Shown piece after piece: positions 1-10,273 of a stretch of DNA of 64,000 nt. The translations under genes were made by a program, and so were the position numbers. Source of the DNA: a bacterium (lineage in GTDB: Bacteria; Krumholzibacteriota; Krumholzibacteriia; LZORAL124-64-63); the NCBI GenBank assembly GCA_031441465.1, contig JANOEP010000011.1, positions 1 through 64,000 on the forward strand, given 5' to 3'. Within the stretch, counting starts at the first letter, position 1. Every line of letters starts with the position of its first letter. The notes below the pieces were generated by a model. It was not told where the DNA came from. It made no database searches and saw only the letters and a program-made list of their open reading frames with translations.

Positions 1-140
1 CCTCCATGCCTCCGGAAGATCGGGTCCAGGTCCGTCTGGGGGAATCCCAGAGGAATCTGGCCTACTTCCGGCCGGCGGCAAGGGGTGCCGCAGTTTTAGA
101 CCGGCGCGACAGGTGCCGCACTTTTCAGCCGGCGTTTACA
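1..140 (-). mobile_element. Probable IS21-family insertion sequence end (partial; the element continues beyond the window start)
   Basis: Minus strand from 140 reads TGTAAACGCCGGCTGAAAAGTGCGGCACC TGTCGCGCCGGTCTAAAACTGCGGCACC. It has a TGT terminus and two 23-bp imperfect direct repeats (84-106 and 112-134, 19/23 identical, 28-bp period), the layout of IS21-family ends. It abuts a truncated CRISPR repeat, and GGAGG motifs at 13-9 and 5-1 point out of the window. No transposase is visible. Confidence 0.65.
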
Positions 141-213
141 CGTGGGGAACGTGCGATCCGGGCGCCCGGGACGGTGCGGAAGACCGGTTCATCCCCACGC
201 GCGTGGGGAACGT
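141..213 (-). CRISPR. Type I-E CRISPR array, leader-proximal part: full repeat 185-213, 32-bp spacer 153-184, half repeat 141-152
   Basis: 29-bp repeat CGGTTCATCCCCACGCGCGTGGGGAACGT (minus strand ACGTTCCCCACGCGCGTGGGGATGAACCG, with CCCCAC/GTGGGG hairpin and ATGAACCG handle). Its last 12 bp recur exactly 61 bp to the left. It lies next to cas2. Confidence 0.9.
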
Positions 214-285
214 ACTTCCTTCTAACCCACTATTTATCAGTCATATGCCTGTTTTAGGGAATTCTACCGAATTTATTTGCAATCT
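214..285 (-). promoter_or_regulatory. AT-rich CRISPR leader, partly overlapping the cas2 3' end
   Basis: AT-rich segment adjoining the first repeat, with a GGTAGAAT -10-like motif on the minus strand (about 260-268) as seen in I-E leaders. Confidence 0.6.
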
Positions 286-588
286 GCTGGAGGGTAGTGC
301 TTCAGATGAGTCAGGGGGAAGAAAGGCACAGAGCTGGATCCCATCGAACTCCACGGGGATGCGCCTGTTGGATCCACAGGTGTCGAATGCGAAGCCAAGG
401 TCATTTGGCTGCGACCAAGCGATGACGGCATTGCCGCCGCCGATCTCGTCAGTGATTACCTTCCATGTCCGTTCTCGCACCCGCTCTGAATAGTCGCCAA
501 GATACACCCCGGCGCGCACCTCCAAGAAGAGGCGCGTGAGATAGCCGCGCAGCCGCGGTGGTGTGTTCTCAAGCACGATGACCAGCAT
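241..588 (-). CDS. cas2: CRISPR-associated Cas2, type I-E
   Basis: MLVIVLENTPPRLRGYLTRLFLEVRAGVYLGD...VEFDGIQL; start at 588 overlaps the cas1 end. Confidence 0.93.
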   Translation of the reverse strand: MLVIVLENTPPRLRGYLTRLFLEVRAGVYLGDYSERVRERTWKVITDEIGGGNAVIAWSQPNDLGFAFDTCGSNRRIPVEFDGIQLCAFLPPDSSEALPSSRLQINSVEFPKTGI

Positions 589-1480
589 TCCCGGTTTCCT
601 CCTTGTTGGGAATGGCAATGGGTACGGCTTCCATGTGGGCCTTGGGGACTGGAACACCTCCCGCCGCCAGGATGTCCTCGATAGTGGGGATGATCCGTGC
701 AAGAAGATTGTGTTTTCGAAAACTGTTGCGACAATAGTGTCGTGTTTCCCGCGCCGGATCTGGCCTGCTGCTAGCCGCCACCTTGAATGCGATGGGCACT
801 ACGGTATCGAATTTGAAGAGATCGGCGATGTCATAGACGAAGGATAAGGGCTTCCCAGTATGGAGAAATCCGATGGCCGGGGCGTAGCCGGCCGCCAGGA
901 TGGCTGCCTCGCACAGGCCGTAGAGACAATGAGTGGCGGTACTCAGGCATCGGTTAACAACATCACCTTGATCGAAATGATCTGGGTCGTAGTCACGTCG
1001 CACCCATGGCACACCGTACTGCTGGGCAAGGAGCTTGTAATTGGTCCGGACCCTCACACCCTCGATGCCCCGCAACTGTTCAATGCTACGACGGGCAGGG
1101 GGCTCCTCCTGAAATCGATGGCGGTACATGGCCCGGATCACTCTCAGGCGTAGATCTTCATCCAGTGCGAGCTTGGCTTGGTAGAGCAGTCGGTCGGAAC
1201 GCGCACCTCCCGGCTGGCCCGCCGAATACAACCGCACGCCGCCTTCCCCCACCCACAACACCAAACAACCGACCTCAGCAGCCAGGGCGATTGCCGCGTG
1301 GGTAACGCGGGTTCCTGGTTCCAACATCAGACAGGCCAAGCCACCCACCGGGATGTGGGTGCGGATACCCTCCTTGTCGATGAGAACAAGGGCGCCGTCT
1401 TGGACATCGAGATTCCCATACTGAAGCCAGACCACTGAGGTTCGCTCCTTGATGGGGATGGGATTGGACTGGAGCCTCAT
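569..1480 (-). CDS. cas1: CRISPR-associated integrase Cas1, type I-E
   Basis: IPIKERTS, LMLEPGTRVTHAA, WVGEGGVRLYSAG, QLRGIEG, GFLHTGKPLSFVYDIADLFK. Start set at ATG 1480, overlapping the cas6e stop. Confidence 0.96.
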   Translation of the reverse strand: MRLQSNPIPIKERTSVVWLQYGNLDVQDGALVLIDKEGIRTHIPVGGLACLMLEPGTRVTHAAIALAAEVGCLVLWVGEGGVRLYSAGQPGGARSDRLLYQAKLALDEDLRLRVIRAMYRHRFQEEPPARRSIEQLRGIEGVRVRTNYKLLAQQYGVPWVRRDYDPDHFDQGDVVNRCLSTATHCLYGLCEAAILAAGYAPAIGFLHTGKPLSFVYDIADLFKFDTVVPIAFKVAASSRPDPARETRHYCRNSFRKHNLLARIIPTIEDILAAGGVPVPKAHMEAVPIAIPNKEETGNAGHRA

Positions 1481-2109
1481 GGTGCTGGCGCCAGTGAGAG
1501 GAGCCCAAGTCCCATGGCCTTTCCATGTCCGATGCCGCGTTGAAGGGTCTCTCGGAATAGGCTGGGATTCGTTACCTGAAGCCGCCCGTCGAAAAGAGCA
1601 GAGAAGACCTGGATTTGGGTATCTCCGTGTGTGCGTCCGCGCAACATCTGCTCTTGAGAGATACAGACTGCCTGTACCTCGAATCCATGCCGTGCTCCTT
1701 TTTGGTTCAGCCAGGTTTCCTGGTCGGGCAGCCTCAGGAGCCCTATGCGCCTGCCATTGCGAGTCACGCAAGGATTGGCGCGAATACGGAATCGAAAACG
1801 GGTTTCGGGAGCAAGGTTCCGCAGGCCCAGACGATCATCAAGGTCGAGACCGGGGTCAGGAGTTCCGACGTACCAGCCACTCACACCCAACTGAGACCAG
1901 TTGGGTTCCAGGGGACTCTGGATCAGGAGCCGAGGATGCCCAGAAGGGTCGGCCTCAGCCTCCAGGCGCCACAGGAAGGCCCCTTCAGCGCACTTCTGGC
2001 CCGGCAGAGAGAAGGCCCGACAGAGGGTGGCGTGCATCTGGTAGGGGTCGCCCAGGTCGCGCCGAGCCTCCTTGCAGCGGGAATCCAAGTGGAGCCTATG
2101 CAGGAACAT
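1477..2109 (-). CDS. cas6e: Cas6e/Cse3 crRNA-processing endoribonuclease
   Basis: YQMHATL, FRFRIRANP and the C-terminal G-rich loop GIGHGKAMGLGLLSL. Confidence 0.94.
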   Translation of the reverse strand: MFLHRLHLDSRCKEARRDLGDPYQMHATLCRAFSLPGQKCAEGAFLWRLEAEADPSGHPRLLIQSPLEPNWSQLGVSGWYVGTPDPGLDLDDRLGLRNLAPETRFRFRIRANPCVTRNGRRIGLLRLPDQETWLNQKGARHGFEVQAVCISQEQMLRGRTHGDTQIQVFSALFDGRLQVTNPSLFRETLQRGIGHGKAMGLGLLSLAPAP

Positions 2110-2791
2110 GATTGGCCTCCCTGGACAGCACCACCCATTCGGATCGTACGAAGCGCGCCCCGAAGCGGCGTTCGGAAAACGACGAAAGGGGCTGATCCAT
2201 GCGCATGGTCCCGCTTCCGTCCAGGGATTCCCACGAACACAGAAGCCGTTCCGGAGGGATATCTTCTGTACTCCGTCCGCCGATCCATGGCCAGGTGGTG
2301 AGAACCTCCATCAGTGGGCAATCACGTAATCCGTCAGGCAGCCCGAGTGGTTCGGTGGGCACGTAGGACTTTCGGCCCAGGAACAGAGGCCAGACGGGAT
2401 CCGAAAGAGCGACATGGATCTTCATCAAAAGGTCCCGATTCGTCCCTTCGCATCCCACAAGGAAGGCGGCATCGGCGAGGTAGAACCTCTGGGACACAAC
2501 CCCATCTTTGGCTTGGGATCCGTCTGCCTTGATGATGGAGTCTGTTGCAGCGCAACCCGCCGTCTGGTAGTCGCGCTTGAGGATGCCCGGGCGATCGTGC
2601 CGGACTCCTATGGCGAGGTGAGTTAGGGGTTCTAGATCCACCCAGTTCTCACGGTCGATCCCCAGGGCGGCAGCCAGCAACCCTATCACTCCGGACTTGC
2701 TGGGCTCTTTACCTGTGTCTCGTTGGTTGAAGCGGCTGGTGGTGCCCCAGGCCTGAAGGGGCCCCACCAGGCGAAGCAGTAGGGTTGACAT
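2096..2791 (-). CDS. cas5e: Cas5e Cascade subunit
   Basis: LLLRLVGPLQAWG, PSKSGVIGLLAAALG, RFYLADAAF, LFLGRKS. Confidence 0.95.
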   Translation of the reverse strand: MSTLLLRLVGPLQAWGTTSRFNQRDTGKEPSKSGVIGLLAAALGIDRENWVDLEPLTHLAIGVRHDRPGILKRDYQTAGCAATDSIIKADGSQAKDGVVSQRFYLADAAFLVGCEGTNRDLLMKIHVALSDPVWPLFLGRKSYVPTEPLGLPDGLRDCPLMEVLTTWPWIGGRSTEDIPPERLLCSWESLDGSGTMRMDQPLSSFSERRFGARFVRSEWVVLSREANHVPA

Positions 2792-2795
2792 ACCT

Positions 2796-3953
2796 CTACT
2801 CCTTCACGGCTTGCAGGACCTGATCCAGCAGTGCATCCAGGGAGGATGCGCCAGTGCCGAATCCGGCAGTATCGGCCTGCACCAGGTTTAAAACAACAGT
2901 GGTCCCCTTCCCGCCGTAAGCGACCTCAAGCATCTTGCTCTTCTCTACCAACTTGTTCGCGGAGATCAAGGTCAGGGAGCCGTTGGTCTTGGCGCGGATA
3001 GGCACTTCGAAAGCATTGGCGAGGTTGCGCGGAGCCGTGTGATGGCGAACCGAGACTGCCACGAACTCTGGGGGATTGTGGGCCGCGAAGGTGTTCTGTT
3101 TCCCTGTGGGCTCGGCCACTACGAAGCCCTCGAGGAAGGCACGGAGACCTTTCATGGCTAGTGCAACATCCCCCTGAAGGTTCTCTACCAGTTTTGACCA
3201 GTCCACCACGGCGTAGCGGTAAAAACAGGCGGAGTTGAATTCCACCGTCCCCATCATGTCGGCCCCGGCGGTGTCCTCCGGCTTGAGATCGTCCACGGCG
3301 GTGTAGAAGTCGAACTCGCGTTCGACAGCATGTGTCGAAAGGGCGTGGGCCACTTGGCAGGCTGCGTTCTGGTTCTTTTCTGGCATATCGGCAAGCATGC
3401 GACCGAAAAGCGCGACATCCACGGCCTTGCCGCCGTTGAAGATCTTGTCGAGGGCTTTCTTCAATTCGGGATCCGCCTGCTTGGCCGCATCCTTCTTGGC
3501 TTTGCCTACCTTCTTGCCTTCCGAAGAAGTCACGGGAGCAGCGATCGAGTCCCACCTCTCATCAATAGTCCTGGAGATTTCTTGGATTTCTCGTCGTCCC
3601 AGGAACAAGAGATACTCGCTCTTGCCATCCTCCTTTGTGGAAAGCTCGACGGCCGCCAATGCTAACCTTGCTTTGGTAATGGCTTCAGCCTCGGGGCGTC
3701 CCTTCTCGGCCAGTGACTTGACCAGTGCATCCAATAGCCGCTTGGTGCGTGTGGCTAAGTCCTCGGTAGACAATACTTCTTGTTCGACTAAGGCTACGAA
3801 GTGTTGCCGCACCGCCCGCTTGAGGCACTGACTGGAAATACGCGCGCGACGGGTTCCACCGAAGAATGCGTCTTTGGGGGCTCCAGTATCGTCTCGGTTG
3901 AGGTTTGAGGGGGCGAAGTTCTGTAAGGCATGGATCTCAATCAGGGTCTTCAT
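2796..3953 (-). CDS. cas7e: Cas7/Cse4 Cascade backbone
   Basis: [48 protein letters not shown]. Confidence 0.96.
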
Positions 3954-4468
3954 TTGGTGATCTCCTCGGGGGTGGTGGTCTGTGTCTCCATCTCGTGACT
4001 CAAGATCCTGTAGAAATCACGGGCCCAAGCATTCTGGGTGAGCTTCTGATGGTTGTTCCAGTAGAGCAGCCCCTTAAGCATGGCCTCGAAGTCGATGTTT
4101 TGGTCATTAAGCAATGCGATCACTTGGCGTAAGCGGTTTGGCAATTGGTCAGGATCGGCATCCAGCAGATTGATAAAGCGGCGTTCGGTGCTTGTGGATC
4201 TACTGGCCAGTTGGTGAGTCGCACACGCCTCTCCGATGGATATCCGTCCTTCAGTCCGACCCTCACGCCAATGTGCGGCCCAGAGGCCGGCCAGGAGGTA
4301 GAGGATCTTCCGGCGCCAGGTGTTGTCATCGTCCTTAACGAAGGGCTCAACGTAAGGATAAGCTGAAGGAAACTCCGCGGGATCAAAGGCTAGACTTCGT
4401 CGCAGGACCGCACGCACGCGAGTGTCCTTTGCGTTCATGTCTTCCATCCATTCGATGAATCCGCTCAT
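3950..4468 (-). CDS. cse2: Cas11/Cse2 small subunit
   Basis: [27 protein letters not shown]; lies between cas8e and cas7. Confidence 0.92.
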
Positions 4469-6003
4469 GTGTCCTCCTTCTGCGGTTCGTATTTCTGGAT
4501 TTCTTCATCCAGATATTTCAGCTTGCGGCAAACCGGCCCCTCGGCTTTTGCGAGCGCCCGAATGGCCCAAGCATCGCCCATGGATACCGAGGCGCGGTGC
4601 TGATCCCAGGCGGCCCGCAAGGTGTTCCGGACGGATTTCAACCACTGGCAGCGGATATCCTCGGAATCACGTTCGAGGGTGTATTCACGCAGGATCTCGT
4701 GGAAACGGGATTCCATGGAGGACCAATACCAGGGATTCACGGGCATCTGTCCTACGAACCCCTTTATGTCCTTACCCGCAGGTTTGCGATCCCCTCTGGA
4801 CAATAGGTCGCGTGCGAAGGAACAACAGGCCGAATAAAGGGACCCCTGGGCATCATTTGCGTCGTCGAGAAGTTGGCGGATCGCCGCCCGGATGGATTTG
4901 TTTCCCGACAAGGCCTTTGGCAGGGCGAAGCGCTCCATGCGCCAGAACACGATCTTAGCCTTGTCATTTAATTGGCCAAGAATCATCACCGCTTGCGGAA
5001 AGCGATCCGGACTTGTGCGAGTCAAAGCTATGGCATGTTCGATGACCTGGGGGGCGAGATGTGACTGGTCGGGGAGTAGAGAGTCGAAATCCCTCCAGAT
5101 TCCTAGCTCGCGGAATTGGATGGGTAACTTCCCCTTATCTTCATCGATCCGATAACCAAGCATAGGATCAACTTGTTCGGAAGGACCCCGACCAACTCCA
5201 GAAGCAAAGGCAAGCCGTGATACCCGGCTGTTCGAATCGGGGTCCAAACGAACGGATCTTGTTCTCCATGTATAGAGATCCACTAGGCCTGTAGGAATGC
5301 GCTCAGGTCCCGATTTCAGGCTATCCATCGTGTCGGGAGATTTTTCCCAGATTGCCAAATCCGTTCTCATAATTTCTCGATTTTGCGGGGACAGCCCGAA
5401 CAGGAGGGTGTCCTCCAAATTCATTCCAATTGGGATAGCCATAGCCGCAGTGGCAGATGGCGCGCTCTTGGTGTATTGAAAATCACTATTTCCCCCTCCA
5501 AGCGCGAAGGTTTGAGATGCAAGCAACCATCTTGCTGCTGCCTGAGGAGAGATAGCACCGGAATCTCCGACTTCGATGTGGTCGAAGAGTACTTTTGCGT
5601 TGTCGGCGTTGTGTTCTGCGGCAAGCACTGTCCACGATTTCCATGTCTTTTCCCCCTTGCTCTCCTTGGGCAAATATCCAGGCACTTGGAGGAATGGTGA
5701 CCCCTGATCGAAAAGGTCGAACCGACCATGCCACCTATCCAGGTAGGCCTTGATCTTGTCGCCTGGTAGCCCCGCCTTGAACAGGGCCTTGGCCCGGGCG
5801 ATGTCCGTTGGATCCTCCAAAGCGCGATACAGTACTGCCAACAGGAAACGGTGCAGGGCAGCCACGACAAGCGGCGATGGATCTTCGATGGTGGCGATTT
5901 CTTTAGCTCGAAGCAATGTGTCTCGGATGCCCAGGTCCTCGCGGCTTCCATCGGGAAACCGCACCGGGATCCATTTCTCATCGATCAGGTTGAATTGGTT
6001 CAT
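4465..6003 (-). CDS. cse1: Cas8e/Cse1 large subunit
   Basis: FNLIDEKWIPVR, RFDLFD..PFLQ, LYTWRTRSVRL; operon position. Confidence 0.93.
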   Translation of the reverse strand: MNQFNLIDEKWIPVRFPDGSREDLGIRDTLLRAKEIATIEDPSPLVVAALHRFLLAVLYRALEDPTDIARAKALFKAGLPGDKIKAYLDRWHGRFDLFDQGSPFLQVPGYLPKESKGEKTWKSWTVLAAEHNADNAKVLFDHIEVGDSGAISPQAAARWLLASQTFALGGGNSDFQYTKSAPSATAAMAIPIGMNLEDTLLFGLSPQNREIMRTDLAIWEKSPDTMDSLKSGPERIPTGLVDLYTWRTRSVRLDPDSNSRVSRLAFASGVGRGPSEQVDPMLGYRIDEDKGKLPIQFRELGIWRDFDSLLPDQSHLAPQVIEHAIALTRTSPDRFPQAVMILGQLNDKAKIVFWRMERFALPKALSGNKSIRAAIRQLLDDANDAQGSLYSACCSFARDLLSRGDRKPAGKDIKGFVGQMPVNPWYWSSMESRFHEILREYTLERDSEDIRCQWLKSVRNTLRAAWDQHRASVSMGDAWAIRALAKAEGPVCRKLKYLDEEIQKYEPQKEDT

Positions 6004-8675
6004 TCGACATCCTTTGGCTCGTACACTAGCCCCAAGTCGCTATCCAGTCGCACTGCCTGATCCTGCGTCCAGCGTCCCTGCTGGTCTAGCAAAAGCGGAT
6101 AGCAGTTGCGCAGGAGCGGCGACTGCTCCCATCCATGCGGCACCCCCCGCGCCTGGAGCTGTTTGACAATTCCTTTGCGCGAAAGGCTCATGCCCCGCAA
6201 GAACCAGCTCTTGGACTGCGCGAAATTCAGCTCCACCTCGGGACGAAATCCGTCGGCGGGAAACAGGGGGACTGCTACGACCGAGGGCTCGCCCAATCGC
6301 GTCTGGGCCACCAGCGTGGGATGCAATCCAGGTTCGTCCTCGTCGGCCTTGATGTACCGGGCTGGCTCGTTCCATGATGCGTCGTCCGGAAATCCGATGA
6401 TCGCTTGGTTGGCCAGTCCCTTGTAGGCGAAAGACTCGCCCTCCTCAGCCTCCAGCGCCTTCCCCAAACGTTCTTGCAGGGATTCTGGCACCACCACTTG
6501 TTCCTCGTATACCGCCTGCACCAAATCATCGATCTCGTCCGGCAGCGTTAGATTGTGCCTAGTCCGTAATAGAACCCAAGTGCGGAGCAATAGGTCTTCT
6601 CGGTACACCGTCCCCCACCACAGAGGCTTCCCGAAATTGGGGGGAGTATCACCGTTCAATCCTGCCACGAGCAAAATTGGTTCGAGAATGGGTCGAGCAT
6701 TTCGTTCATGACGCCATAGGCGTCCTGCACGCTGGAGCACCAAGTCGATGGGAGCGAGGTCGGTCGCGATGCAATCGAAGTCTATGTCCAGGCTTTGTTC
6801 AGCGACCTGAGTGGCGATGAGGATCATCCGGCCTTCCCGTGCCCCGTCTTTCCCAAAAGTAGCCAAAACCTGATTTTCTCGCTGCTGTCGTCTTTCAGCC
6901 GGGAACCGAGCATGGAAGAGGAACACTTGTGTTCCGTCTGGCAGTCGCTTGCCGACGTTCTGCCCATCGCGTATGATTGGCTCCCCATCGGGAAATCGTT
7001 GATAGAGATCCTGTGCCCGCTGCACCGTATTCATGAGAGCTAGGCCCATGCCGCCGTTGGCAAGGCGCTCCTCAAGGGCGTCGCGAAAAGTCGGCAGATC
7101 GGGGGCAATACCTTGCAGTAGGACGGTTCGCCTTCGTGCAGGATCGGCCTCGAAGTGGATCTGTTCTACGCTTCCATCACGAAACACTGACAAGCGCGGA
7201 TAAGCCACTTCGGTCGTGGGAAACTCAGCATTTGCGATGCTGGCGAGTTTCCTTCGGATGGACGGCGGCAATGTGGCCGACAGAAGCACTACTGAGGAAC
7301 CCAGGGCCAACAGCCAGCGTAACAAGTGCACCATAAGAGTGCCCGTGTAGGCGTCGTAGGCATGGATCTCATCGAAGACTACCACGCGGTTTGCCAGTCC
7401 CCACAGACGCACGAAATGGTGCCGCACCGGAAGGATGGGCAACAGCGCTTGGTCCACCGTCCCCACTCCATATTCCGAGAGAAGTGCGCGCTTCTTGTGG
7501 GTGAACCATTCACCGGCACGGATGTCGCCACCATTCTCTGGATCTTGAATGCCCGAGAAGGACAGGTGTTGGAAGGTGTCATTTAAAAGCGACGCGCCGT
7601 GCAAGAGTTGCAGATCCAGGTTCCGTCCAGGATTCAGGGAACGCAGGAAGGTAAGGGTGCGCTCGAACATGGCGTTGCCGGTGGCCTTGGTGGGCAGGGC
7701 CACATACAGGCCGCGATGACCGAAACGCCGCTGGAGTTCCAGATGGGCATAGAACGCTGCTTCGGTCTTGCCCTCGCCCATTGGGGCTTCCAGGAGGAAG
7801 ATGCCAGGCCCTGTGATGTCACGCACGGCGTTGGCGACGGCAATCTGAAGAGGGCGAACGGGACTACACTTCGGGAAAACCTCTTCAAAGGATCGTTCCT
7901 CTGGCGACAGGGGTGTTCGATACTCCCATCCGATTGCCTCTAAAGCCTTTTTGGCATTGACTTTGCGCTTGTGCAGCCAAGCCGCCAGATTGTCGCAGTC
8001 CCCAGGGGTGCCGAAGGGGAACCAGTCCTCGTTGGACCCGATCCAGTCGGCGAAACTCGTGAGGCCAGACAACAACATGAAGTCGGGTCCGGTTAGGGCC
8101 TGTTTGGTGGGAATAAGAGAGGGCTTGAAAACATCCAACAGCGTTTCAAAGATACTTCCACGGACTTGGGCCCAATCGTCTCCTCCGAGGGCGCATTCAA
8201 CGCCCTCCAGGAAGTCGATGCAGGTCGGAGAAGCCCGATTCCCGTGATGGCAGCCCACCGCGTCGGCGGCCAAGCCCGCCAACTCATCCGGCCAGTGTCG
8301 CTCCTGCAACAGTTTCGTCAAGGCAATCTGGCTCACGAAAGCATGGTTGATGTTTGTCTTCGGACTTCGGGGAATAGACAAAGGGGCCTTGTCTAGAAGG
8401 GTTTTGGCTCTATCCCACTTGCACTGGAATCCCGGACAGGCCTTTCCTAAGTCGTGGCAAGCGATCAGGAGTAACAGCCATGGGCGGGCACTTTCCCAAG
8501 GCAGGCCCAGGATGGCGGCCATGCGATTCCGGGTTGTTTCGGGCTCCCGATCTAAAATGCTTTCAGCACACGCACCGACATCGAGTAGGTGTAAGGGGAG
8601 AGGGTGATAATCGTTGGCTCCCTTTGCGGTCTTTGCCCAAAGGAAACCGTGTATTCCTATACCTAGCCAGCTCAT
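6000..8675 (-). CDS. cas3: Cas3 HD nuclease-helicase
   Basis: HD domain (HLLDV, CHDLGKA), APMGEGKTEAA, DEIHAYD, LSATLP, ATQVAEQSLDID, QRAGRLWRH. Confidence 0.97.
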   Translation of the reverse strand: MSWLGIGIHGFLWAKTAKGANDYHPLPLHLLDVGACAESILDREPETTRNRMAAILGLPWESARPWLLLLIACHDLGKACPGFQCKWDRAKTLLDKAPLSIPRSPKTNINHAFVSQIALTKLLQERHWPDELAGLAADAVGCHHGNRASPTCIDFLEGVECALGGDDWAQVRGSIFETLLDVFKPSLIPTKQALTGPDFMLLSGLTSFADWIGSNEDWFPFGTPGDCDNLAAWLHKRKVNAKKALEAIGWEYRTPLSPEERSFEEVFPKCSPVRPLQIAVANAVRDITGPGIFLLEAPMGEGKTEAAFYAHLELQRRFGHRGLYVALPTKATGNAMFERTLTFLRSLNPGRNLDLQLLHGASLLNDTFQHLSFSGIQDPENGGDIRAGEWFTHKKRALLSEYGVGTVDQALLPILPVRHHFVRLWGLANRVVVFDEIHAYDAYTGTLMVHLLRWLLALGSSVVLLSATLPPSIRRKLASIANAEFPTTEVAYPRLSVFRDGSVEQIHFEADPARRRTVLLQGIAPDLPTFRDALEERLANGGMGLALMNTVQRAQDLYQRFPDGEPIIRDGQNVGKRLPDGTQVFLFHARFPAERRQQRENQVLATFGKDGAREGRMILIATQVAEQSLDIDFDCIATDLAPIDLVLQRAGRLWRHERNARPILEPILLVAGLNGDTPPNFGKPLWWGTVYREDLLLRTWVLLRTRHNLTLPDEIDDLVQAVYEEQVVVPESLQERLGKALEAEEGESFAYKGLANQAIIGFPDDASWNEPARYIKADEDEPGLHPTLVAQTRLGEPSVVAVPLFPADGFRPEVELNFAQSKSWFLRGMSLSRKGIVKQLQARGVPHGWEQSPLLRNCYPLLLDQQGRWTQDQAVRLDSDLGLVYEPKDVE

Positions 8676-8937
8676 ACTACTCCAAAGAGTTCATAAATCA
8701 GAGCATGATGCCCCGAAGGCTAGAAGGCTGTTCCCGAGATAAGATCACAATGCCCCATCCCCTCAACAGAGGAAGTCATTTCCTATGCGATCTAGTAAAA
8801 TATAAATTCACAGTCGTGTCCAAGGAGTGACGTTGATATCAAATCGTGCAGCAGTCTATACTGCCCACTGAACCCGTGCAGCCGTGTCGGCGCTGGTGTC
8901 GTAAATCAGTAGGCGAATAACCACAAGGCGATTATAA

Positions 8938-9432
8938 GTGATGTATCGTTCATTTGCAGCCATAGATTTCGAGACCGCCGACCACCAACGCGACAGTGCT
9001 TGTGCGGTTGGCATTGTCCGCGTTGAAGACGGGACAATCGTAGACCGGTACTATCGACTTATCAGGCCACCTCGTCAGACGATGGTCTTCACTTGGGTGC
9101 ATGGGATCACATGGGAAATGGTCCGGGAAGCTGCGCCCTTCGCTGAGGTATGGCGCGAGGGAAGTCAATTGTTCTGCGGAATCGAAGTCATCGCCGCCCA
9201 CAATGCCTCTTTTGATCAAGGGGTTCTTGGTGCCTGCTGCCGTCGAGCCGGATTGCTGGAACCAGATGTACCATTTATCTGCTCGATGATGTTGGCGCGG
9301 CGACATTGGGGCATTCACCCCACGACTCTCCCCAACGTGTGCCGAGAACTGAAGATATCTATTCAGCACCACAACGCGCTGTCGGATGCTGAAGCGTGCG
9401 CCGCGATCGTGCTGGCTGTGGACCGGCGGTAG
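8938..9432 (+). CDS. Stand-alone DEDDh (DnaQ-like) 3'-5' exonuclease
   Basis: ExoI IDFET, ExoII AHNASFD, ExoIII HHNALSDA; 164 aa; lower-GC codon usage like the cas genes. Confidence 0.9.
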   Translation: MMYRSFAAIDFETADHQRDSACAVGIVRVEDGTIVDRYYRLIRPPRQTMVFTWVHGITWEMVREAAPFAEVWREGSQLFCGIEVIAAHNASFDQGVLGACCRRAGLLEPDVPFICSMMLARRHWGIHPTTLPNVCRELKISIQHHNALSDAEACAAIVLAVDRR

Positions 9433-9580
9433 AGGCCGGAACTGGCGTGGGAGCAGATATCAAGGTCCGGACTTCCAAATCCACAGGCTTTCGGCCCTCC
9501 GGAAGTCGGGCCGCAACCGTTTCCGGGGGGGAGATTTCAGCGTTTTAGGCTCTCTTTCCCCCCGTTTCCCACCCCCAACA

Positions 9581-9608
9581 TTGACTCCCGCCCCCCATAT
9601 GGTATCGT
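9581..9608 (+). promoter_or_regulatory. Sigma70-like promoter of udk, probably a leaderless transcript
   Basis: TTGACT (9581-9586), 16 bp, then TGnTATCGT (-10 at 9603-9608); ATG at 9617 has no SD. Confidence 0.5.
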
Positions 9609-9616
9609 TCCCGCCC

Positions 9617-10273
9617 ATGAACCCCTCACCGGCATCCCCGCCCCCCGTCATCATCGGCATCGCCGGCGGCACCGGCTCCGGCAAGACCACCGTGGCCCTG
9701 CGCGTCCAGGAGGCGGCCCCCGGCAAGACGGTCCAGATCATCCACCACGACTCCTACTACCGCGACAACGCCCACCTCGAGCTGGAGGACCGGGCCAAGA
9801 TCAACTACGACCACCCCAGCGCCTTCGAGACCGAGCTGCTCGTGGCGCACCTGGCCGAGTTGAAGCGGGGCCTGGCCGTCGACGTGCCGATCTACGACTA
9901 CACGACCCACTCGCGGAGCGCGGAGACGCGGCGGGTCGAGCCGGCGGACATCGTCTTCGTCGAGGGCATCCTGGTGCTGGAGTCCGAGGTCCTGCGCTCG
10001 CTGATGGACATCCGGCTGTACGTGGGGGTGGACGCCGACGAGCGCTTCATCCGGCGCCTGCAGCGCGACATCCAGGAGCGCGGCCGCTCCATGGCCTCGG
10101 TGATCGAGCAGTACATGAGGGTGGTGCGCCCGATGCACCAGCAGTTCGTCAGCCCGACCAAGCGCTACGCCCACCTGATCATCCCCGAGGGCGGGCACAA
10201 CCAGGTGGCGATCGACCTGATCGCGGCCAGGATCCAGAGCATCATCCAGGAGCGGCGGGCCTACCGGGTCTGA
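9617..10273 (+). CDS. udk: Uridine kinase
   Basis: IIGIAGGTGSGKTT, DSYY, NYDHPSAF, RRLQRDIQERGR, FVSPTKRYA. Confidence 0.95.
   Translation: MNPSPASPPPVIIGIAGGTGSGKTTVALRVQEAAPGKTVQIIHHDSYYRDNAHLELEDRAKINYDHPSAFETELLVAHLAELKRGLAVDVPIYDYTTHSRSAETRRVEPADIVFVEGILVLESEVLRSLMDIRLYVGVDADERFIRRLQRDIQERGRSMASVIEQYMRVVRPMHQQFVSPTKRYAHLIIPEGGHNQVAIDLIAARIQSIIQERRAYRV

Follow-up and report, generated by a model that had tools for sequence, protein, structure and literature searches.

An IS21-family element in the second repeat of a type I-E CRISPR array, probably placed there by ordinary transposition

The insertion of an IS21-family element into a CRISPR repeat has already been published, and the locus described here is a well-resolved new instance of a known event. 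In Xanthomonas citri pv. citri, an ISRso19-like member of the family is found in an array repeat and in a spacer, with 42 end copies of the element at contig ends (PMC6889575, in the accessible part of that paper). IS insertion into CRISPR loci is also mentioned in the available portion of PMC10359306, and the CRISPRidentify preprint (10.1101/2020.11.05.369512), as far as its available text goes, builds IS-split arrays into its pipeline. In the literature covered on IS elements in CRISPR arrays and on IS21 targets, which takes in few subscription papers, no title pointed to an IS specific for CRISPR repeats. For one IS21 element, 5-bp direct repeats without strong target specificity (PMC10122671) and, in other members, target duplications of 7-8 bp as well as outward-facing terminal promoters in those tested (PMC3281130) are described in the sections seen of these papers, and fusion promoters are covered by a review (PMC9330008, likewise seen in part).

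The window, i.e. the whole stretch of 64,000 nucleotides analysed here, is the start of contig C11 in a bin of 74 contigs and 3.49 Mb (also labelled G000). As in X. citri, a multi-copy IS21 element has its ends at the contig ends of a draft genome and splits an array inside a repeat; there the hit lies deeper in the array and a second insertion is in a spacer (PMC6889575, accessible part), whereas here the hit is in repeat 2, adjacent to the leader, in an uncultured bacterium whose I-E operon is complete. With IS5376 the element shares the terminal CA, two sub-repeats per end, 5-bp repeats, the lack of a strong target preference and, judging by complete relatives, probably istA-istB; the sequence subgroup differs (ends begin TGTRAACGCCGG), and for IS5376 clustering near promoter regions is mentioned (PMC10122671, portions seen); a bias towards low-GC islands, as in the present copies, does not come up there. 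The locus in PMC10359306 is also type I-E, but according to the available portion the insertions there break cas genes and abolish immunity, whereas here the cas genes are intact and one repeat is split. The features are as follows.

1..140, minus strand: left end (IRL side) of the IS21-family element, tip at 140, TGT reading inward, truncated by the contig start
5..7, minus strand: likely istA start codon, in alignment with the IstA ATG of relative G007 (502 aa; ME... against MEVYRNMQQW)
84..106, minus strand: subterminal repeat L2, paired with L1, predicted IstA-binding site
112..134, minus strand: subterminal repeat L1, predicted IstA-binding site (function by analogy with the part seen of PMC10122671)
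141..145, no strand: 5-bp target-site duplication CGTGG; the same 5 bases close the repeat piece at the right end (runs X1 and X2)
141..152, minus strand: what remains of CRISPR repeat 2 on the leader side, 12 of its 29 nt, without a hairpin
153..184, minus strand: spacer 1, 32 nt
185..213, minus strand: CRISPR repeat 1, intact type I-E repeat of 29 nt, 7-bp stem and 4-nt loop
214..330, minus strand: putative leader, AT-rich, into which the 3' end of the cas2 frame extends, limits approximate
241..588, minus strand: cas2 (I-E), TIGR01873 96.6 bits, cut-off 33.15
569..1489, minus strand: cas1 (I-E), TIGR03638 375.1 bits
1477..2109, minus strand: cas6e, TIGR01907 80 bits
2096..2791, minus strand: cas5e, TIGR01868 160 bits
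2796..3953, minus strand: cas7e, TIGR01869 341.6 bits
3950..4468, minus strand: cse2 (cas11), TIGR02548 71 bits
4465..6003, minus strand: cas8e (cse1), TIGR02547 167.2 bits
6000..8675, minus strand: cas3 (HD and helicase), passes TIGR01587 and TIGR01596; NF007248 374.5 bits, short of the cut-off of 569

The cas operon is complete and runs on the minus strand from 8675 down to 241, with 8/8 genes above a subtype or domain model cut-off. All eight reading frames look intact, as are repeat 1 and the leader. Because of the strand of the operon, transcription of the array likely proceeds leftward, starting at the leader and running into the element. The cas2 frame codes for 115 aa, of which the model covers residues 1-86; its part at 241-330 crosses the AT-rich leader, and the stop lies 27 nt before repeat 1. 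A search of positions 1-420 found no sigma-70 consensus for the leader, and an Rfam scan of 1-10000 gave 0 matches.

The array has the palindromic 29-nt repeats, spacers of about 32 nt and 7-bp stem of type I-E; among the 11 assembled spacers, 10 are 32 nt long and one is 31 nt. The remnant at 141-152 is identical to the last 12 nt of repeat 1 (202-213), in agreement with a sequence-only reading of this DNA, in which repeat 2 had been reduced to this piece. A distal array, made up of 9 exact repeats, one variant repeat and one incomplete repeat, is found at the end of contig C26, and repeat identity and orientation suggest that it joins the window locus. Its single variant repeat (C26:57870-57929) adjoins the only 31-nt spacer, and the contig breaks off 10 nt into a repeat. 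The middle spacers are probably missing from the bin. In the viral_contigs set a 27-nt portion of spacer 1 had no exact match, and elsewhere in the bin the spacer had no near-full match.

The element was recognised by its end. The sequence to the left of 141 closes with ...TTTACA, the reverse complement of which begins TGT, and its two sub-repeats of 23 nt each (84-106 and 112-134) are 83% identical and 28 nt apart; this tip and repeat pair had been described correctly from the letters alone, as had the assignment to IS21, which is now carried by complete istA-istB elements in relatives. Five contigs of the bin (C11, C9, C43, C13 and C44) each end in a copy of the 138-140 nt left end, with 100% identity between copies; the flanks of all five differ, and divergence begins at one common base, so the sharing is not due to chance. 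The five identical ends also support recent activity, in line with the earlier suggestion of a recent insertion. Matches to the left end are present in 7/60 relatives. In one of these, a complete 2,522-bp istA-istB element (G007:C115) has a left end identical to window 1-140 at 124/140 positions and a right end identical to the start of contig C21 at 120/140. Its IstA scores 249.7 bits against NF033546 (cut-off 160) and its IstB 266.5 bits against NF038214 (cut-off 200), with the same outcome for the element at G015:C2; IstA is above the NF033546 cut-off in the relatives whose left ends are 89% and 80% identical.

C21 starts with a right end whose tip is at C21:140, the other terminal repeat that the sequence-only reading had proposed to look for; sequence of this type is also present in contigs from runs X1 and X2. 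The right end encodes the 13 C-terminal residues of an IstB-like protein, which match the tail of the G007 IstB. Both ends begin TGT and share 11 of their first 12 nt, and the right end carries its own tandem subterminal pair (R1/R2); the element thus has the imperfect TG...CA inverted repeats and, at either end, the minimum of two subterminal repeats that characterise IS21. Since the likely istA start is at 7-5 of the window and the IstB tail on C21, the window holds the left end and C21 the right end, and istAB points in the same direction as the array. Of istA the window contains the likely start codon only. A Pfam rve search and an IstA query found no IstA in the bin, from which the body of the element is absent, the likely reason being that a multi-copy body was left out of it. 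The count of 5 left ends to 1 right end is probably an effect of assembly or binning. In runs X1 and X2, a 724-nt contig begins at the element tip and extends past the window edge. Its read depth is 341.5 in X1, where that of the cas contig is 20.2, and 470.8 against 28.8 in X2, a ratio of about 16-17 fold that is not a copy number. In viral_contigs the end pattern had 0 matches.

Several other mobile sequences of the bin were distinguished from this element. An istB match on C15 was rejected as its body; C15:1-730 (L001) belongs to another IS21 element, whose ends differ, and contains its istB and right end. Two multi-copy end families ending in CTAG, with 6 and 5 contig ends (C23_R, C68_R, C26_L, C25_L, C59_L and C50_L; C14_R, C69_L, C57_R, C56_L and C55_R), were weighed as the missing right end and also rejected; their 11 ends belong to a second multi-copy element, putatively IS630-like. 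A solitary, diverged IS21-type end lies mid-contig at C66:79483-79535 with no adjoining transposase.

The other side of the insertion was recovered from separate assemblies. Seven runs were found, 2 of them containing at least 0.94 of the words, and four (X1-X4) were compared with positions 1-1200. X1 and X2, which may be the source samples, each have a contig that stays with the repeat through base 22 (window-equivalent 206) and then passes into right-end sequence of the C21 type, of which it contains the initial 27 nt; X3 and X4 have no right-end junction and contain a relative or an element end only. The repeat piece closes with CGTGG and the window junction begins at the base equivalent to 202, so the duplicated target is 202-206. 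The missing part of the repeat and a short target duplication, both anticipated earlier, are therefore present, although only the matching duplication links the two array junctions, all repeats being alike and no single listed contig spanning both. A second 5-bp duplication, CATCT, links contigs C21 and C44. None was found in 3 related elements that have their two ends on a single contig (L031/L081, L071/L072 and L078/L079), and for the copies on C9, C43 and C13 no contig end closes with a partial end or with their duplication. Pairing of ends by 5-mers across all loci was discarded, as 12 of its 15 pairs joined different assemblies and are thus due to chance. The placement of the break at the hairpin centre holds in part. 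Repeat 1 contains an 18-nt palindrome at 192-209 with its axis at 200/201, and the visible break, equivalent to 201/202, is indeed one base off this axis; the target itself has its centre at 204, which is 3.5 bp from the axis and within the stem arm.

These observations are best explained, with good confidence, by the insertion of an IS21-family element into repeat 2 of the type I-E array with a 5-bp duplication, most likely by ordinary transposition without sequence specificity into a low-GC island; both junctions, the duplication, the identity of the ends with those of istA-istB elements, the occurrence of copies at unrelated sites and the bias of these sites towards low GC are observed. That the junction at 140/141 is an assembly chimera of a multi-copy element and an array might be suspected from its position at a contig start in a fragmented bin, from the single right end found beside five left ends and from the fact that no single listed contig spans the whole stretch. 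It is extremely improbable, because the separate assembly of two of the four runs contains the complementary junction with the matching duplication, and the break falls exactly at the element tip, as in four other copies; the misassembly that the sequence-only reading had allowed for is therefore largely refuted. The same reading proposed that the element prefers CRISPR repeats or short palindromes and so acts as a CRISPR-targeting, immunity-silencing transposon. The target does lie within a perfect 18-bp palindrome, the accessible part of PMC6889575 reports another IS21 element in a repeat, and uniform targeting of 16 copies would hit an array of 0.7-3 kb with a chance of 0.3-1.4%. Against this, only 1/5 of the element's own left-end flanks is in an array, and a single hit is known among at least 12 repeats. 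A scan of genome_contigs gave at least 119 loci with 120 ends; among the matches listed, none of the 115 ends with a flank of at least 100 nt had an array-like flank by a detector that does flag the window's own, and after further loci were added and duplicates merged, 0/121 distinct related ends among the matches listed were in an array. When metagenomes were scanned for ends with a type I-E stem arm no more than 20 nt away, 22 loci came up, with 0 elements in a repeat; 2/22 look like true element ends, without an array, and L159 and L160 were dismissed as one and the same spacer inside an intact I-E array and not an IS end. No base is conserved in the 12 flank positions of 128 ends. Nor was a hairpin excess found in 118 flanks, where the 30 nt adjoining the ends fold at -2.38 kcal/mol and windows further away at -2.46 (p = 0.23) and the adjoining stems are slightly shorter (3.46 vs 3.63 bp), although one-sided flanks cannot reveal hairpins centred on the site; the 2 empty sites that could be rebuilt fold at -2.3 and -1.9, as compared with -6.9 for the repeat. 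Most copies are thus outside arrays and without the conserved target or hairpin of a site-specific IS, and the second X. citri insertion was in a spacer (PMC6889575, portion seen). The survey is a weak negative, since this repeat pattern occurs in 0/36 relatives of the same family and in 2/24 others, the hosts checked for it, and most survey hosts may lack an array. Even so, a CRISPR or hairpin preference is not borne out, and we regard it as very unlikely.

A chance hit in the array is plausible because the element's copies appear concentrated in unusual DNA, a bias that the uniform chance of 0.3-1.4% makes necessary for this explanation. The 2-kb GC content of 4/5 of its own left-end flanks is 0.47-0.59; windows below 0.60, a threshold picked after seeing the data, make up 1.9% of the bin and 6/132 contig ends, and include 0/11 flanks of the CTAG-ending element. 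In relative G002, 13 flanks (whose ends may be paired) have a median GC of 0.681 against a background of 0.711 from 121 windows on 20 of about 430 contigs (p = 0.003). Were all copies confined to low-GC DNA, the chance of an array hit would rise to 5-20% for 5 copies and 15-52% for 16, both as upper bounds. This clustering may reflect either target choice or tolerance of insertions in dispensable DNA. On C9, a frame with PNP_UDP_1 and TPR domains is open up to the junction and is likely an interrupted defence-type gene; on C43, a ResIII frame runs into the element end; and the C44 copy lies 213 nt upstream of a HATPase gene. The region at C9:142-1896 (L198), with PNP_UDP_1 and TPR in one frame, also has PADLOC matches to PDC-M60C and a PN-superfamily effector. 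The low-GC island at C43:141-8853 (L199) holds a 997-aa ResIII frame, an 8xMP membrane protein, a pair of integrase and IS91-like transposase, and a degenerate IS21 end at 4168. Copies in a nucleoside-phosphorylase/TPR frame and a type III restriction frame would also fit loose targeting followed by selection of an insertion that weakened the array, for instance one with a self- or plasmid-targeting spacer. It was the allele with the insertion that assembled across the junction, the contig running 140 nt into the element, and selection for IS-inactivated CRISPR-Cas is documented in the available portion of PMC10359306. This alternative is unlikely, given that 0/11 assembled spacers match the rest of the bin at up to 6 mismatches (an incomplete test, from which the middle spacers are absent), that none matches related IS bodies beyond 14 nt, that all cas genes remain intact and that transcription of the distal array may continue from the right end. 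This IS21 subgroup might also be drawn to defence islands and, given an array, to its repeats, with a sense insertion borrowing the CRISPR leader for istA-istB and an outward promoter driving the distal array, so that the transposon takes control; we consider this quite unlikely.

Under ordinary transposition, IstA would bind the L1/L2 and R1/R2 repeats and IstB would capture the target, and staggered cuts 5 bp apart would split the repeat into 12 nt on the leader side and 22 nt on the distal side, with the element oriented along array transcription. Spacer 1 would then be without its 3' Cas6e hairpin, and the next spacer would be left with a weakened 5' hairpin. Acquisition could continue, as repeat 1, the leader and the cas genes remain, whereas the distal array, about 2.5 kb from the leader, might instead be read from a promoter-like motif in the right end. 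The likely outcome is a damaged or rewired array and not a targeted shut-off.

Cas6e cuts at the base of the repeat stem. The intact repeat folds into a 7-bp stem, which the 12-nt remnant cannot form, and spacer 1 thus loses its 3' Cas6e site. The distal piece of 22 nt keeps the 8-nt handle and a 4-bp inner stem. Since Cas6e is reportedly, by the title of one study, not required for interference, the loss of function is uncertain. The array has had no net gain of spacers since the insertion, as a gain would have shifted the broken repeat to position 3, and it is still number 2. On these points the sequence-only reading was right: the hairpin after spacer 1 is lost, no spacer has been added on balance, and a distal array that the element separates from the leader exists (C26). 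Its further claim of silenced immunity is unproven, doubtful and may be wrong. In the right end, an outward-facing, sigma-70-like TTGACG-18-TAAACT, matching the consensus at 9 of 12 positions (0.3 expected in shuffles) and a consensus match only, faces the distal array in sense, so the distal array may still be read. In G007 the motif reads TTGACA-18-TAAACT, and TTGAC is found 87-94 nt from the tip in 21/66 distinct ends of both kinds, as compared with 4 inward-facing occurrences. A terminal promoter-like motif directed toward flanking DNA is likewise known from ISPkr1 and ISPve1 of Paracoccus (PMC3281130, in the part seen); here the motif is a match to the consensus, and the downstream unit is a CRISPR array.

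If the element truly preferred CRISPR repeats, this would amount to a new anti-CRISPR strategy in a simple transposon; the data point the other way. That copies of the element cluster in low-GC, defence-rich islands is a modest added point. Another is that transcription of the separated array may be sustained from the right end of the element, so an IS element in an array need not imply lost immunity.
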